A stretch of DNA of 50,428 nt, from positions 1 through 50,428 of the IMG/VR virus record IMGVR_UViG_3300020044_002789. One strand, given 5' to 3'. Both the position numbers and the translations under genes were made by a program. This DNA comes from a virus. Its lineage: Duplodnaviria; Caudoviricetes. The notes under the pieces are model-generated. The model made no database searches, was not told where the DNA came from, and was given only the letters and a program-made list of their open reading frames with translations. Below, one piece after another: positions 9,385 through 43,708 of this stretch (position 1 is the first letter of the stretch; each line of letters opens with the position of its first letter).

Positions 9385-10730
9385 GCCGTTCCAAACTGTC
9401 ACCGCTAATACTTGAACCTCGTCAGGAGGTGGCAGTCAAGAGGATTGTAAGCGAGCCAACTCGTTCGGCTCTGAACGCCTCTCTTATGGGAACAGGTAAA
9501 ACCCTTATGGGAGTTGAGGTGGCTAAGAGAATCAAAGCCAAAGTGGTTTTGATTATTGCACCGCTAAACACTTACTGGGGTTGGTGGGACACCATTCAGC
9601 GACAGAACAACTATGGCGAAACCATTACCAAGATTGACAGCAGTAAGTCTGGTGTCATTGCTTACAATGATTTGCTTAGCGGTCGTGCTGGCTGGTATTT
9701 CATCGGTCGTGAATACTTCCGCACCAAGGAGTGGAGCAAAGCCAAGCCAGATTTGGTTCTGGTTGATGAGTGTCACTTTGCACAGAACAGGGCTAGCAAG
9801 TCATTCAAGGTTCTAAAGACCTTGAACGCTGGTTTCAAGTTGTCAATGTCAGGAACGCCATCAGGCAACAAGTTTGAGGGCTTCTGGGCTGTGACTAGAT
9901 TCCTGTGGAAAGATACTAACATTGTGGATAAGTCTTTCTGGAAGTGGGTTGAGAAGTTTGCGAAGACTGAATACAGCCCATTTGCAGGGGTCGAGATTAC
10001 AGGCGAGCGAGTGCCGGGTGCTTTCGTAAACTCATTGCCTTGCTACATCAGACTTGAGCCGAATCACAATCTTGAGGTTGTTGAGGAGACTAGGTTCGTT
10101 GACCTCGTGCCAGCGCAACGCAAGATTTACGAGAAGTTTGAGCGTGACTTGGTAGTGTGGCTTGAGGAGAACCCGATGGTTGCTGAAGTGCCTATCGCTG
10201 CTCGAATCAGATTGCGACAGATTACTCTTGCTGTGCCGAGCATTGTTGATGAGGAGATTGTCTTTGACGACAACGCTGTGTCAACTAAGTTCAAAGCATT
10301 GCAAGAAATCATTGAAGACAATCCAGACGAACCGATGTTGCTCTTGACAGATTCACAAAAGTATGCTAGTCTAGTTGCAAAGCGACTTGGCGACAAGGCT
10401 TTTGAGTGGTCTGGTAAAGCAAGTCAGCAACAGCGAGAAGTTGCAAAGCAGAAGTTCTTGCGTGGTGAGTTGAAGTATCTTGTTGCCGTTATCCCAGCGA
10501 TTGCTGAGGGTGTTGACGGATTGCAGGATGTTTGCTCAACCATTGTATGGCTATCTCACAGCGACAGTAACCTAATGAACCAGCAGGTTGTTGAGCGTAT
10601 TCGCAGACGAGGACAGAAGAAAGTCGTGAAGATTTACGACATCGTTGCTCGTGACACATATGACGAAGGTCAGATTTCTAACTTGCTGAAACGCCAGTTG
10701 GAGATGAACGCAACTCTTAGAAAGGGGTAA
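9381..10730 (+). CDS. SF2 (SNF2-like) DNA helicase
   Basis: Walker A MGTGKT, DECH box, SGTP motif III, EGVDGLQ and RIRRRGQ C-terminal motifs. Confidence 0.9.
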   Translation: MSRSKLSPLILEPRQEVAVKRIVSEPTRSALNASLMGTGKTLMGVEVAKRIKAKVVLIIAPLNTYWGWWDTIQRQNNYGETITKIDSSKSGVIAYNDLLSGRAGWYFIGREYFRTKEWSKAKPDLVLVDECHFAQNRASKSFKVLKTLNAGFKLSMSGTPSGNKFEGFWAVTRFLWKDTNIVDKSFWKWVEKFAKTEYSPFAGVEITGERVPGAFVNSLPCYIRLEPNHNLEVVEETRFVDLVPAQRKIYEKFERDLVVWLEENPMVAEVPIAARIRLRQITLAVPSIVDEEIVFDDNAVSTKFKALQEIIEDNPDEPMLLLTDSQKYASLVAKRLGDKAFEWSGKASQQQREVAKQKFLRGELKYLVAVIPAIAEGVDGLQDVCSTIVWLSHSDSNLMNQQVVERIRRRGQKKVVKIYDIVARDTYDEGQISNLLKRQLEMNATLRKG

Positions 10731-11848: not shown

Positions 11849-11971
11849 ATGACGAAGACTAACAAGTTTGGTTGGTGTATGACTGGACAGCACAGCCTGT
11901 GCAAGAAGGTCATACCCAACTACCAATGTGGTTGTGAATGTCATTTAGAAGAAGGAGACTCAAAATCGTAG
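11849..11971 (+). CDS. Small Cys/His-rich protein
   Basis: MTKTNKFGWCMTGQHSLC...CGCECH. Confidence 0.55.
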   Translation: MTKTNKFGWCMTGQHSLCKKVIPNYQCGCECHLEEGDSKS

Positions 11972-12453
11972 ACTACAAGTTCAAGAAGAAGCCAAGAGGC
12001 ACACACTGCTCAAAGGGTCACGAGTTCACTGAAGAGAACACTTCAATCAGGGCACACGACAACGCACGCATTTGCAGAGAATGTCGAAAGCAATATGCAC
12101 GAGAGAAGTATCAGCAAAACAAACTAAAGAATGGTGGAGTAGCAAGACCGCGAAAAGACAAGTCTGGTTTGATTGAACTTATCGCTGCAATGACTTTACC
12201 GGAAGAAGCCAGCAAGAAGTATCAGATACTGCTTGATGGTCTGGCAAAGACTAGCACACCTTGTGTTGAGAATGGGCCCGAATGGTATACCGATAAGGCA
12301 GCCGAAGTGTCGCTTGACAAAGCAGAAGAACTGTGTTACAATTGCCCCCTCATCAAACAGTGCTACGAATACGCAGTTGCTGCTGACGAAAGTTGGGGTG
12401 TATGGGGCGGAATAAACTTCACAAAAGAGGAGGATGGTTTATTTGAGTTATAG
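11965..12453 (+). CDS. whiB: WhiB-family transcription regulator with N-terminal Zn-binding domain (proposed ATC start; alternative ATG 11938)
   Basis: C...ELCYNCPLIKQCYEYA...WGVWGG WhiB signature; N-terminal THCSKGHEFTEENT...RICREC. Confidence 0.85.
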   Translation: MVDYKFKKKPRGTHCSKGHEFTEENTSIRAHDNARICRECRKQYAREKYQQNKLKNGGVARPRKDKSGLIELIAAMTLPEEASKKYQILLDGLAKTSTPCVENGPEWYTDKAAEVSLDKAEELCYNCPLIKQCYEYAVAADESWGVWGGINFTKEEDGLFEL

Positions 12454-13144
12454 CGATATGGAGGTTGTCAGCCTGACAGCCGGGTTATTCAAGTTGGAAT
12501 CAGAGCGAGACAAGCAACGCAAAGTTGGCGCTTCTCAAATCTCTGACCCTTGCACCAAGCATCTAGCGCACGCACTTATGGGAACGGCACAGCCGGAACA
12601 GAAGTATTGGCTAGGTGGCAAGATTGGAACCGCTGTGCACAGTTTTCTTGAAGACGCAATTGCCAAGACTGGCGATGAGGCTTTCAAGGATGCGATGGTA
12701 GAGCAGAAGATTCAGCTGGGCGAGTTGCTAGACTACGGAATGGTCAACTCTAAGCCAGACTTGGTTCTGCCACACAGCAAGCAGTTGCTAGACTGGAAGA
12801 CCACAACTCGCACCAAGATTAAGAAGTTGCAGAATCTAGTTGCTGGTTTGAAAGACGACAGCGAGAGTATGTATACCCTAAACAAGTATGTGGGTCAGGC
12901 TCAGTTGTATGCTTGGGGCTTGAACAAGTCCGGCACACCGATTGAGCGAGTTACTCTGGTGTTCATCAATCGTGATGGCACTTACGAGAACGACATCTGG
13001 GCTTATGGCTTTGACTACAACGAGCAGTTCGCTGTGCAACTGTGGTCAAGACTTGAATCAATCTGGGAAGAACTACGCAATGGCTCTCACCCCGATTCAT
13101 ACGCCAACAATCCAAACTGCTACAAATGCAACATTGGAATCTGA
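12443..13144 (+). CDS. Cas4-like / PD-(D/E)XK exonuclease
   Basis: GASQISDPC, IGTAVH, PDLV..LLDWKT, QAQLYAWG, C-terminal CYKC; GAGGAGG RBS favours TTG 12443. Confidence 0.85.
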   Translation: MSYSDMEVVSLTAGLFKLESERDKQRKVGASQISDPCTKHLAHALMGTAQPEQKYWLGGKIGTAVHSFLEDAIAKTGDEAFKDAMVEQKIQLGELLDYGMVNSKPDLVLPHSKQLLDWKTTTRTKIKKLQNLVAGLKDDSESMYTLNKYVGQAQLYAWGLNKSGTPIERVTLVFINRDGTYENDIWAYGFDYNEQFAVQLWSRLESIWEELRNGSHPDSYANNPNCYKCNIGI

Positions 13145-13181
13145 CACATCTGACTATAAAATCAAATATGTGTGGTATAAT
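13143..13181 (+). promoter_or_regulatory. Extended -10 promoter with upstream GACAC box
   Basis: GACAC 13143-13147; TGTGG-TATAAT 13171-13181; no consensus -35. Confidence 0.7.
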
Positions 13182-13225
13182 GTTCATCTCACAACAACGC
13201 AACAACAGTTCTAAGGAGGACAATC

Positions 13226-13957
13226 ATCAGTAACACAGAGTTCCCAGAGCTTCCGTTTATGAAGCTAATCCACAAGGCTGAAGCCTTGAACGCGCCAAAG
13301 AGCATCTTGCTTTACGGCGATGCAGGTCGAGGCAAGACTTGGCTAGCAGGTTCAATCTCTGAGGTGGCTGGCTACGAGCCAACTCTCCTCATTGATGTCG
13401 AGGGTGGCGCGTCTGCCATCGCTCGCGACTTCAAGAATGTTGATGTTATCAGCATTACTACCCACGACCAGTTCATGCAGGTAATTGCGTGGCTGCTATC
13501 GGGCAAGGCTAAATACAAGACTGTCATCATTGACACGATTGGTGTAGTCATGGACCGAGCCGAAAAGTTCTTTGGCGAGAAGCCAGAGAACCAGAACAAC
13601 AAGTTCGCCAAGTGGGGCGACTTGAAGAACTGGGCAAACGAAATCTTCCGAGCGATGCACACAGCGCCGTTCGTTAGCATTTTGATTGCTCATGCGCTTG
13701 ACGACAAGGATGAAAGCACTGGTGCAATCAAGACCACTGCAATGCTTCCCGGCTCGTTCAAGAGCACATTGCCATCTATTCCAGACATCGTTGGATATCT
13801 TGGCGTAGAGAACACTGAGGATGGTCCTCAGCGCGTGCTGGTAGTCGGTCAGTCGGAGCGTCTTGTAACCAAGAACCGCTTCAACTTGCCACCAAAGATT
13901 TACCAGCCAACGATGAGTGGCATCATCGAACTAATCAACCAAGGAGGTAACAAATAA
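13226..13957 (+). CDS. AAA_24 / Sak4-like RecA-fold ATPase (proposed ATC start; first ATG 13259)
   Basis: ILLYGDAGRGKT Walker A, LLIDVEGG, TVIIDT, DIVGYL, TKNRF; located between nuclease and SSB-like gene. Confidence 0.85.
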   Translation: MSNTEFPELPFMKLIHKAEALNAPKSILLYGDAGRGKTWLAGSISEVAGYEPTLLIDVEGGASAIARDFKNVDVISITTHDQFMQVIAWLLSGKAKYKTVIIDTIGVVMDRAEKFFGEKPENQNNKFAKWGDLKNWANEIFRAMHTAPFVSILIAHALDDKDESTGAIKTTAMLPGSFKSTLPSIPDIVGYLGVENTEDGPQRVLVVGQSERLVTKNRFNLPPKIYQPTMSGIIELINQGGNK

Positions 13958-14552: not shown

Positions 14553-14628
14553 GCCCCCTTAGCTCAGTTGGCAGAGCGCAATACTTGTAATATTGATGTC
14601 ATCGGTTCGATTCCGGTAGGGGGCTCCA
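14553..14628 (+). tRNA. tRNA-Thr(UGU)
   Basis: Full cloverleaf, acceptor GCCCCCT/AGGGGGC, anticodon loop CT-TGT-AA, encoded CCA. Confidence 0.95.
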
Positions 14629-14629
14629 A

Positions 14630-14702
14630 TGGGGCATAGCTCAGATGGCAGAGCGTTCGGCTGTTAACCGAAATGTCGCAGGTTCGAGCCCTGCTGCCCC
14701 AG
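14630..14702 (+). tRNA. tRNA-Asn(GUU)
   Basis: Full cloverleaf, acceptor TGGGGCA/TGCCCCA, anticodon loop CT-GTT-AA, CCA not encoded. Confidence 0.95.
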
Positions 14703-14733
14703 CAATAAAATAACTACTATCAGAGGAGGATAT

Positions 14734-40894: not shown

Positions 40895-42928
40895 TTACTT
40901 TTGATTTTCTACGATTAGTTTGACTTCGCAAGCATCTGTAGTGCAGTAAGCATCGCCAACAGCATCGGCAGCCATCCCAGCGTAAACACCAGAGAAGTCA
41001 ATCTTGAACAGGCTGTCTGCATATTCTTCGTATCGCTCTTTGGTAATCTGCTGGTAAGGCATCTGTGGATACACATGGTTGCCAGATGGCAAGAATGATA
41101 CAGTCTTCAACTGACCATCATACATGTGCAATACAGTTCCAACATCATCCGCTTCCTTCTCTGGGTCGAAAGACACAGTAACAGAAACCGAATTATCTGA
41201 CCAGTAACGCTGTGTAGTAGCTGCTAGGTTCATCTTCTCGAAGATTGACACATCGCGCTCAGCACGCTTTGCACCAGACTTCACAGGGAAGAACACTACC
41301 GAAGTTCCAACCGGGTCTTCAGAGGCTGGCTCTACTGTGTAGTTTGCCATCTTGAATAGCGGAAGCATTGGGTCTGAGTTTCCAAAGCGGATTGCGCGAA
41401 GGAAGTATTCGCCACCCGGAGTCCAGTGAACACCCGGTGATTCTCCAGCTAGGATAGACACAGTTCCTGATGGCTTGACTGTCGTAGTCTTCACAGACTC
41501 GCGAACACCCATCCACTCAGAGTAAGACTTGTCATACGCGCCAACTGCCTCGTAGCCCTTGTCTAGCCATTCACGCAACACAGGCAAGCCCTTGTTGTCA
41601 GCGAAGTTAGCAACACCAGAAACTGAGGTTCCAATACGGCGGTTACGCTGCATGATGGCATTGGTCTCTTCCCAGTGGGTAGGTAGCAATGTTACAGTCT
41701 TAGCGTAGAGGTAAGCGAACTTGAGTGTGCGCTTAAAGTCCTCTAGCGACTCGTGGCGGTTCAAGTAAGTCTCGACCAAGGTGCACATCTCGAACGACTC
41801 CAAAGACTGCTCAGCGCATGGATTATAGCCAACTACGCGCCAGTCCTTGTTGTTTGGAGCGTCAATCAAGCGACCATACTTTCGAGACATATCCATCCAG
41901 ATAACACCCGGCTCACCATTGCGAACAATGCCATCCACGATTGGAGAGAAGTCTGTTCCCACAGAAACCTCAACCGAGTTGTTTGACATCCAAGCCCAGC
42001 CCGGAGTCTCCGCATCGTAAGAGTTACGCTCAGGGAAACGCTCTGCGTTCTTCAAGTTGAGGAAGTCCTCATCGTCAATGCGACCAATGAGAAGCTCAGC
42101 AGAACGGCGAACATTTCCAGAAACCACACAGACACCAATCATGTTACCGATGTCAGCAATGTCTCTGCGAGTCAAAGCCTCGCCAGCGCGACCAATGAAC
42201 AGCTTTCTAATCTGGTTGTGCAACTTGATTAGTGGGTCTGCTCCAGAAGCCGTTCCACCGAATCCCTTAATTGGAGTTCCGTATGGGCGAATCTGGTCGT
42301 AGTCAAAGTCCCAGTTCTTCTGGTCTGGCTTCAAGAACGAATTGATGAGAGCCATCGTGGACTCAGCCCAGCCTTCGCGAGTATCAGGAATGACATACTC
42401 AGATGGCTCTGCTGGCTGGTGAATGGTGAAACCCTTGTCGGCTCCCTTGTCATCAAAACCAACACCAACACCAAGCATCGAAGCTTCCATCAAGAAGCCG
42501 AATGGCTTAGCTGGGTTATTCTTGGTCATCTCGTTGGTCGAGACAAAAGCACAGTTCTGCAACGCTGCTGAGTTCTTTTGCTCGTTTACGATTTTAGTTC
42601 CCATGACCCATAGTCCACGACCCGGAGGGGTCCATTTAAGGGTGAATAGGCGGTCGAACGCTTCCTTGGCTGATGCCTGAGCCTTATTGTCGTTCCAAGG
42701 CAGCCTAGAGGCCTTACAGTGGTCTTTCTGAAGGGAATACATGCCATTGATTACGCGCTCGCAGACTTCAGCCCAAGTCTCCTTGGTTCCATCATCCTTT
42801 TTGCGTGAGTAAGTTCTTAGAAATGTAATCTCTCCCACAGAGTTTCCAGCTACATCTTGGTAGCCGAATGGTGATTCTTTTTTCCGGTATTCGTTAACGA
42901 AATCTTCGGATAATTTGAATGAAAAAAT
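40895..42928 (-). CDS. nrdJ: Class II (B12-dependent) ribonucleotide reductase, monomeric type; proposed ATT start
   Basis: RTYSR, PPGRGLW, LQNC, NVRRSAE, NPCAEQ, TVKPSGT, C-terminal CTTDAC; frame open 30 codons upstream of GTG 42838. Confidence 0.92.
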   Translation of the reverse strand: MFSFKLSEDFVNEYRKKESPFGYQDVAGNSVGEITFLRTYSRKKDDGTKETWAEVCERVINGMYSLQKDHCKASRLPWNDNKAQASAKEAFDRLFTLKWTPPGRGLWVMGTKIVNEQKNSAALQNCAFVSTNEMTKNNPAKPFGFLMEASMLGVGVGFDDKGADKGFTIHQPAEPSEYVIPDTREGWAESTMALINSFLKPDQKNWDFDYDQIRPYGTPIKGFGGTASGADPLIKLHNQIRKLFIGRAGEALTRRDIADIGNMIGVCVVSGNVRRSAELLIGRIDDEDFLNLKNAERFPERNSYDAETPGWAWMSNNSVEVSVGTDFSPIVDGIVRNGEPGVIWMDMSRKYGRLIDAPNNKDWRVVGYNPCAEQSLESFEMCTLVETYLNRHESLEDFKRTLKFAYLYAKTVTLLPTHWEETNAIMQRNRRIGTSVSGVANFADNKGLPVLREWLDKGYEAVGAYDKSYSEWMGVRESVKTTTVKPSGTVSILAGESPGVHWTPGGEYFLRAIRFGNSDPMLPLFKMANYTVEPASEDPVGTSVVFFPVKSGAKRAERDVSIFEKMNLAATTQRYWSDNSVSVTVSFDPEKEADDVGTVLHMYDGQLKTVSFLPSGNHVYPQMPYQQITKERYEEYADSLFKIDFSGVYAGMAADAVGDAYCTTDACEVKLIVENQK

Positions 42929-42992
42929 AGTAAACTCCTCCTTTAAGGTTAGTTGGTTTGGTTTGGTTGGTCTACCATTATAACACTGATTA

Positions 42993-43028
42993 GAAAACCC
43001 CCGGGGAGGTTATCCACCGGGGGCTGAA
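42993..43028 (-). terminator. Intrinsic terminator after NlpC/P60 gene
   Basis: CCCCCGG/CCGGGGG stem followed by TTTT on - strand. Confidence 0.75.
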
Positions 43029-43032
43029 ACTT

Positions 43033-43590: not shown

Positions 43591-43671
43591 TTAGCGACCT
43601 ACCTTTCTATTGGTTAGTTCAGTCGTTTATTGTCTTGGCCCATCTATTCAGTTGTTCGTCTATTATACCAC

Positions 43672-43708
43672 AAAAAACAGAAAACCCCCAACCGAAGTTG
43701 AGGGTCTC
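43672..43708 (-). terminator. Intrinsic terminator after major capsid gene
   Basis: ACCCTCAAC-TTCG-GTTGGGGGT hairpin plus TTTTCTGTTTTTT on - strand. Confidence 0.8.

Follow-up and report, generated by a model that had tools for sequence, protein, structure and literature searches.

Probable AUC and AUU start codons behind strong Shine-Dalgarno sequences in three genes of an actinophage-like genome

Translation from AUC, AUU or AUA has been described for several bacterial genes. According to published reports, codons of the AUY type (Y, C or U) give 1-2% of the output of AUG in Escherichia coli, with a product that starts with methionine, and a preprint counts only infC and pcnB as confirmed cases in that species. 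In Staphylococcus aureus, infC, cvfC1 and ccpN start at AUA or AUU behind an extended Shine-Dalgarno sequence (SD), with reduced initiation, and in Enterococcus faecalis ebpA starts at an ATT upstream of its annotated ATG. In Streptomyces, infC starts at ATC and the GTC start of sigR is repressed by initiation factor 3 (IF3). IF3 in excess is also described as inhibiting non-canonical starts as well as SD-less reinitiation. Here we analysed the virus record IMGVR_UViG_3300020044_002789 (Caudoviricetes; its whole 50,428 bp is called the window below), in which three genes probably start at an AUY codon 6-8 nt after a strong SD: a whiB-like gene (whiB) at AUC 11965, the gene for an AAA_24 (Sak4-like) ATPase at AUC 13226, and that for a class II ribonucleotide reductase (RNR) at AUU 42928. 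On comparative sequence evidence we give this reading a rough probability of 0.8.

The phage genes are both like and unlike the described cases. infC (AUU in E. coli, AUA in S. aureus, ATC in Streptomyces) shares with them an AUH start (H, A, C or U) that is poorly recognised by the initiator tRNA, and the actinobacterial ATC is the codon of two of the phage genes; however, infC is a host gene whose product is the discriminator in a closed feedback loop, whereas the phage genes would be passengers of that control. The S. aureus genes cvfC1 (AUU) and ccpN (AUA) are regulator genes with conserved AUH-type starts behind a long, well-spaced SD, to which the phage SDs of 6-8 nt at a spacing of 6-8 nt correspond; they were mapped by retapamulin ribosome profiling and reporter assays, whereas the phage sites come from comparative sequence, and in a virus. 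sigR of Streptomyces is comparable as an actinobacterial regulator whose non-canonical start is IF3-repressed and misannotated by gene finders, but its codon is GTC and it sets a sigma/anti-sigma stoichiometry, while the phage genes have no known partner ratio. ebpA of E. faecalis and pcnB of E. coli are alike in that a rare AUU start was predicted from an SD and an open frame, the annotated downstream ATG is unused and the effect is attenuation; each is a single host gene, whereas in the phage several genes are concerned, with repeated ATG/AUY switching among relatives.

Start regions of the three genes

SDs were scanned for as matches of at least 5 nt to the anti-SD complement, 3-12 nt upstream of a start. 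A sequence-only reading of the window had proposed ATC starts for whiB and the ATPase, and both sites were found as described there: AAGGAG at 11952-11957 is followed after 7 nt by the in-frame ATC 11965, and AAGGAGG at 13213-13219 after 6 nt by the in-frame ATC 13226. The scan gave one SD upstream of each ATC and none of at least 5 nt upstream of ATG 11938 or ATG 13259, the canonical codons of the two frames. The RNR case, absent from that reading, was found by a blind census of SD-linked starts, and the SD-spacing of the three genes is AAGGAG + 7 nt (whiB), (T)AAGGAGG + 6 nt (ATPase) and AAGGAGG + 8 nt (RNR). From the AUY codons the proteins would begin (M)VDYKFK for whiB, (M)SNTEFPELPF for the ATPase and (M)FSFKLSEDF for RNR. 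The features of the three start regions are as follows.

11849/11879..11971, plus strand: small Cys/His-rich open reading frame (ORF), 30 codons (ATG 11879) or 40 (ATG 11849), residues GWCMTGQHSLCKKVIPNYQCGCECH
11938..11940, plus strand: ATG in frame with and upstream of the whiB ATC, without SD, in the public gene call (171 aa); TGA directly 5'
11952..11957, plus strand: SD AAGGAG, 7 nt upstream of ATC 11965
11965..12453, plus strand: whiB-like gene from ATC 11965, 162 codons and stop (PF02467, E=4.5e-12)
13173..13181, plus strand: extended -10 element TGGTATAAT upstream of the ATPase, read by eye
13213..13219, plus strand: SD AAGGAGG (TAAGGAGG from 13212), serving the ATPase
13226..13957, plus strand: AAA_24 (Sak4-like) ATPase from ATC 13226, 243 codons and stop (PF13479, E=9.2e-27)
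13259..13261, plus strand: internal ATG without SD, 11 codons downstream of ATC 13226, used in public gene calls (232 aa)
40895..42928, minus strand: class II (B12-dependent) RNR from ATT 42928, 677 codons and stop, by Pfam and PDB similarity
42937..42943, minus strand: SD AAGGAGG, 8 nt upstream of ATT 42928
42977..42985, minus strand: extended -10 element TGTTATAAT upstream of RNR, with a GC-rich hairpin and T-run before it, read by eye

The motif alone proves nothing, because the same arrangement arises by chance within long genes. The whiB and ATPase sites are significant because they lie at the 5' end of the open frame and are accompanied by homologue evidence. We take the AUY codons as starts since they stand where relatives have ATG, since the residues after them are conserved with synonymous changes, and since canonical alternatives are absent or would cut conserved domains. 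Homologues with ATG at the same codon, conserved N-terminal residues and relatives without a canonical alternative lend good support to the earlier proposal, which preferred ATC to the first ATG as the start of whiB and the ATPase.

The ATPase matches AAA_24 at full length (profile positions 2-195 of 195) with GDAGRGKT as Walker A, and in cultured actinophages its homologues carry RecA-like or Sak4-like annotations. Its start region was compared in 45 of 48 related viral loci, L040, L042 and L044 being left out for want of a 5' end. Of the 45 loci, 39 have an upstream ATG 10-25 codons before the codon aligned to 13259 and 4-9 nt after an AGGAGG-type SD; most of them share a conserved N-terminal (E/D)FPE-type motif ending in F (FPEL in near relatives; FPEP/FPAP or bare PxP in some). 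The codon aligned to 13259 is GCT, GCA, CTA or CAA in 33 of the 45 loci and is therefore not a start in these, and in this phage ATG 13259 probably encodes an internal methionine. Six loci (L002-L006, L010) carry, like this phage, ATC after the SD with no canonical start upstream, and L001 has ATG exactly where L004, L005, L006 and L010 have ATC, after an identical AGGAGGAAACT.

A tree was built for 22 chosen rows from the part of the gene that follows the start region. It placed the ATC rows in one clade with a support of 94 in the Shimodaira-Hasegawa-like approximate likelihood ratio test (SH-aLRT), and one change suffices to explain them. Inside this clade, with its roughly 0.12 substitutions per site, the codons of EFPELPF (seven in all) vary only synonymously, at the third position (GAG/GAA, CTT/CTA/CTG, CCG/CCA), and the indels in the variable part of the extension are multiples of 3. 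Cluster mates of the protein at >=90% identity are 245-246 aa long and begin M..TTTEFPELPF-MKLIHK; ATC-bearing versions are recorded as 232 aa. All 45 loci show, at the corresponding position, an extended -10-like element with TATAAT or a close variant of it; the -35/-10 scan gave no call for the element in this phage. As a side observation, the ATPase frame of L010 (2527-3199) closes 31 codons past the internal methionine, although its tblastn match spans the full 232-residue query within 673 nt (696 in relatives); the early closure probably reflects a frameshift or assembly error of this contig.

The whiB product combines an N-terminal Cys/His domain with a C-terminal WhiB domain, which lies above the Pfam gathering score and reads C-x(24)-C-x2-C-x5-C followed by GVWGG. 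Among 59 related loci searched, 53 matched, one of them partially. ATC GTA GAY TAY AAR stands at the start of 15 loci (9 contigs), while ATG takes the place of the ATC in 10 loci (8 contigs); a further 27 belong to a distant subfamily with a longer N-terminus and an ATG or GTG start. Six ATC contigs, in four upstream contexts, contain no ATG, GTG or TTG from the last in-frame stop to the conserved IVDYKFKKKPRG(T/S)HC, and a cluster mate of 162 aa begins MVDYKF. The whiB tree needs at least three ATG/ATC switches, and its ATC members lie more than 1 substitution per site apart. A metagenome scan added 9 loci (2 ATC, 2 ATT, 1 ATG and 4 of the distant subfamily), and the ATT of L142 and L144 refuted the idea of an invariant ATC, with no ATT or ATA, at this codon.

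ATG 11938 is probably not the whiB start. It is a by-product of CECH codons in the small upstream Cys-rich ORF, and in L056/57 the matching ATG runs straight into TAA. The small ORF keeps its Cys/His pattern in L056/57, had no match in Pfam, and probably encodes a small zinc-binding protein. Its TAG stop overlaps the whiB start (ATCGTAG), and an upstream-ORF stop likewise overlaps the start in L049/50, L054 and L056/57, so translational coupling or reinitiation at whiB is possible; in L012/13 no ORF ends at the whiB start, and TAAGGAGG plus 4 nt precede the ATC.

Two further observations concern the nuclease gene. Some 90 nt before it, in the 3' part of whiB, there is a near-consensus promoter-like site at 12314-12342 (plus strand; TTGACA, 17 nt, TACAAT with TG; 11 of 12 matches), and the start of the nuclease gene is ambiguous (12428-12445, plus strand), with AGGAGG abutting ATG 12434 (spacing 0) and TTG 12443 placed 9 nt after the SD.

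The RNR frame contains no ATG, GTG or TTG between the stop at 43012-43010 and GTG 42838, and no SD was found by the scan at that GTG. The protein matches PF17975 (E=8.3e-31) and PF21995, the class II insertion domain (E=2.1e-14); RNR_Alpha profile positions 1-101 match residues 6-111 counted from the ATT, and in the match to PDB 1L1L (E=5.5e-99) residue 25 of 1L1L aligns to RNR residue 30. A start at GTG 42838 would cut about 25-30 residues of the RNR_Alpha domain, which counts against it. We found 588 relatives and kept 80 for the comparison of starts. Among these, L060 and L067 have the same SD, spacer and ATT (the L067 protein is 82% identical and its leader different), L061 has ATG at the ATT codon, and most of the others start 1-3 codons upstream of the ATT position. 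The promoter and terminator scans did not call the extended -10 element or the hairpin listed above. RNR and the NlpC/P60 gene each stand behind their own GC-rich hairpin with T-run and TGnTATAAT (42930-43030 and 43600-43700, respectively; minus strand) inside the structural module, and judging by this layout the two units look like self-contained inserted cassettes.

The DUF3987 gene, which starts at ATG 14734 in this phage, provided a fourth comparison. Its starts in 28 distinct contexts were ATG (23), TTG (3), GTG (1) and ATT (1), the last in L032/L034 with no canonical alternative for 44 codons. The start state varies independently per gene, with ATG for whiB and ATC for the ATPase in L006 and the reverse in L012/13, and the AUY cases all fall in early or replication genes, none in structural genes. 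An AUH codon thus occupies the canonical start position of orthologues for the ATPase (L001), whiB (8 contigs) and RNR (L061). In this phage the ATPase and RNR have no canonical in-frame start that fits the conserved N-terminus, and for whiB this is the case only in six related contigs. Tandem AUY codons occur twice: the ATPase of this phage has a second ATC at 13223, 3 nt after the SD (ATC ATC, 13223-13228), and DUF3987 of L032/L034 has ATT ATT, the codons lying 3 and 6 nt after the SD. This could be a coincidence or a way to raise initiation.

Alternatives weighed against AUY initiation

Several observations weigh against the AUY starts or against their proposed meaning. An SD-like hexamer followed by an in-frame AUY is also found inside long genes, for example at 9516 and 33524 (minus strand), which tells against the motif when it is taken alone. 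The whiB of this phage has its own in-frame ATG 9 codons upstream of the ATC, and L010/L051, L142 and L144 have an in-frame GTG 3 codons upstream of the AUY, abutting the SD, as a possible start. The in-frame ATG 13259 is kept in the near clade, including the ATG-start members L001, L007 and L012/13. With a nucleotide divergence of about 9%, the ATPase ATC clade is shallow, and some 4 substitutions and 2 indels thus make up all the evidence that the extension is under selection. The SD is equally strong in ATG- and ATC-bearing relatives: L001 (ATG) and L004 (ATC) share SD and spacer, which led us to reject the idea that the SD was strengthened to compensate in ATC lineages. Finally, it is E. 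coli, S. aureus and Streptomyces, not the host of this phage, from which reduced output and dependence on IF3 are known.

That the AUY codons are real starts without regulatory meaning, drifting nearly neutrally to and from ATG because the SD is near-perfect, is a possible explanation, which we rate on the unlikely side of even. ATG/AUY switches recur in four genes and independently between genomes, the whiB codon varies between ATC and ATT, and the SDs of ATG and ATC relatives are equal, all of which such drift would produce. It is harder to reconcile with the persistence of the whiB ATC over branches of more than 1 substitution per site, though one base change restores ATG, with the confinement of the AUY cases to early or replication genes, or with the 1-2% of AUG output described in E. 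coli and the strongly reduced output in S. aureus.

It appears unlikely that both starts are used, with a long ATPase form from AUC 13226 and a short one from AUG 13259, and with whiB translated from AUG 11938 as well as AUC 11965. Both codons are in frame in each gene and the internal ATPase methionine is kept in the near clade, but the ATGs have no SD and 33 of the 45 ATPase loci have no start codon at the internal position. Nor does any RNA structure bring the SD near ATG 13259: RNA folding that would link the SD to this ATG or mask the starts was rejected, with fold z-scores of -1.39 (the value bearing on ATG 13259), -0.34 and +0.97, and the CUUCC near 13259, a possible pairing partner of the SD, is not conserved in relatives.

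A still less credible alternative, improbable in our view, holds that the canonical codons ATG 11938, ATG 13259 and GTG 42838 are the real starts and that the SD-AUY arrangement is a coincidence or a relic of lost ATGs. These codons are in frame, public gene calls use both ATGs, and the methionine at 13259 also occurs in relatives that have an upstream ATG (L001, L007, L012/13). However, none of the three has an SD, GTG 42838 would trim the RNR_Alpha domain, the extension motif of the ATPase is kept with synonymous changes only in the ATC clade, and for whiB six contigs have no alternative at all while the counterpart of ATG 11938 in L056/57 is followed by TAA.

Expression of whiB as a fusion protein by -1 frameshifting from the small upstream ORF, with no AUC initiation, is very improbable. 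The whiB frame is indeed -1 relative to the overlapping small ORF, but 11958-11971 contains no slippery heptamer (X XXY YYZ), and the N-terminus of whiB is unchanged where the upstream ORF is a different gene (L054), ends before the start (L051-53) or is missing (L012/13).

The earlier reading had also raised the question of whether the ATC bases are real, and contigs from other runs and studies reproduced both sites. X3 record 10 spans 11889-12232 with mismatches only at 12117 and 12126, and X2 record 8 spans 13159-13308 with zero differences; despite their RNA-Seq label, X2 and X4 are probably DNA. The same ATC is found in several independent IMG/VR contigs from different samples, across diverged sequences. 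A sequencing or assembly error that turned ATG into ATC or ATT, for which only the rarity of AUY starts speaks, is refuted by these same bases in other runs, studies and diverged IMG/VR contigs, and we give it next to no weight.

Two further candidates concern the phage's own translation machinery. An initiator-like tRNA for AUC was rejected, as the genome encodes only tRNA-Thr(UGU) and tRNA-Asn(GUU), and Pfam scans of 52 ORF translations gave no phage-encoded translation factor.

Initiation, IF3 and annotation

If the three genes start at AUY codons, only the first two bases of AUC or AUU would pair with the initiator tRNA, and the 30S subunit would be kept in place by the long SD/anti-SD helix until it can initiate. 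The product would begin with methionine and be made at a rate below that from AUG; for whiB, termination-reinitiation from the small upstream ORF may add to initiation. By analogy with the described systems, we infer that the output of the three genes is reduced and IF3-dependent.

The sequence-only reading had suggested that the phage may gate these genes on IF3. The idea is plausible for an actinobacterial phage, given the repression of non-canonical starts by IF3, the ATC start of infC in Streptomyces and the IF3-repressed GTC of sigR; plain attenuation or near-neutral toggling would fit the data equally well. A wider version, which we regard as doubtful, is that a freshwater actinophage group places AUC/AUU starts behind near-perfect SDs on early genes (whiB, the recombination ATPase, RNR and, in certain relatives, the primase-like gene) so that their translation follows host IF3 activity, rising with infC when initiation fidelity drops. 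If true, the virus would read the initiation-fidelity state of its host (e.g. stress, or an IF3:ribosome ratio shifted by infection) as a timing or dosage signal. The weak starts on a regulator and on DNA-metabolism genes, with deep persistence for whiB, point to selection on dosage or on IF3-linked control during infection.

The mechanism belongs to a known kind, and annotation is affected in concrete ways. Gene finders limited to ATG, GTG and TTG misplace the N-termini: on record the ATPase has 232 aa instead of 243 aa and whiB 171 aa instead of 162 aa, and in relatives without a canonical alternative the truncation would be more severe or the gene missed. Three AUY starts among about 77 open frames are far more than the infC and pcnB of E. 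coli, as counted in the preprint. A literature search, which most subscription journals and supplements lay outside the reach of, returned no report of AUC or AUU starts in phage genes; in a paper on SPP1, AUC and AUU appear only in a codon-usage table, irrelevant to starts.

Genome, host and neighbouring features

The virus record is a complete genome of 50,428 bp with direct terminal repeats and 47.7% G+C, and of its roughly 77 open frames some are probably spurious. The replication module lies on the plus strand at about 3.4-21.5 kb and, by Pfam, includes an SNF2 helicase, the WhiB-like protein, a PD-(D/E)XK nuclease, the AAA_24 ATPase, DUF669, a DUF3987 primase/helicase-like protein, ThyX and thioredoxin. 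Structural genes of siphovirus type lie on the minus strand, along with the NlpC/P60 gene and the class II RNR. The two tRNA genes of the genome are adjacent:

14553-14703, plus strand: tRNA-Thr(UGU) and tRNA-Asn(GUU), between the DUF669 and DUF3987 genes

The sequencing runs that contain the phage sequence are mostly freshwater metagenomes, with no RNA run among those listed for the region. Phages of Curtobacterium, Arthrobacter, Gordonia and Mycobacterium are the nearest cultured relatives, none exceeding 40% identity across most of a protein; the best cultured match for the ATPase was Curtobacterium phage Yappy (39.6%), and no cultured phage was close. The WhiB domain and these cultured actinophage relatives point to an actinobacterial host, with no genus nameable. 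A search of genome contigs with RNR gave a single match, a short contig of a metagenome-assembled genome that is uninformative on the host.

Many of the structural genes on the minus strand (22-50 kb) have no SD match of at least 5 nt, and replication-module genes often have matches of 6-9 nt; the modules may differ in their use of SDs. Two overlapping ORFs occupy 35088-34085 (minus strand), immediately upstream of the tape measure gene, and the second (34567-34085) lacks a canonical start over 33 codons. Such an arrangement is typically seen in the -1 frameshift pair of tail assembly chaperones, which the two ORFs may represent.

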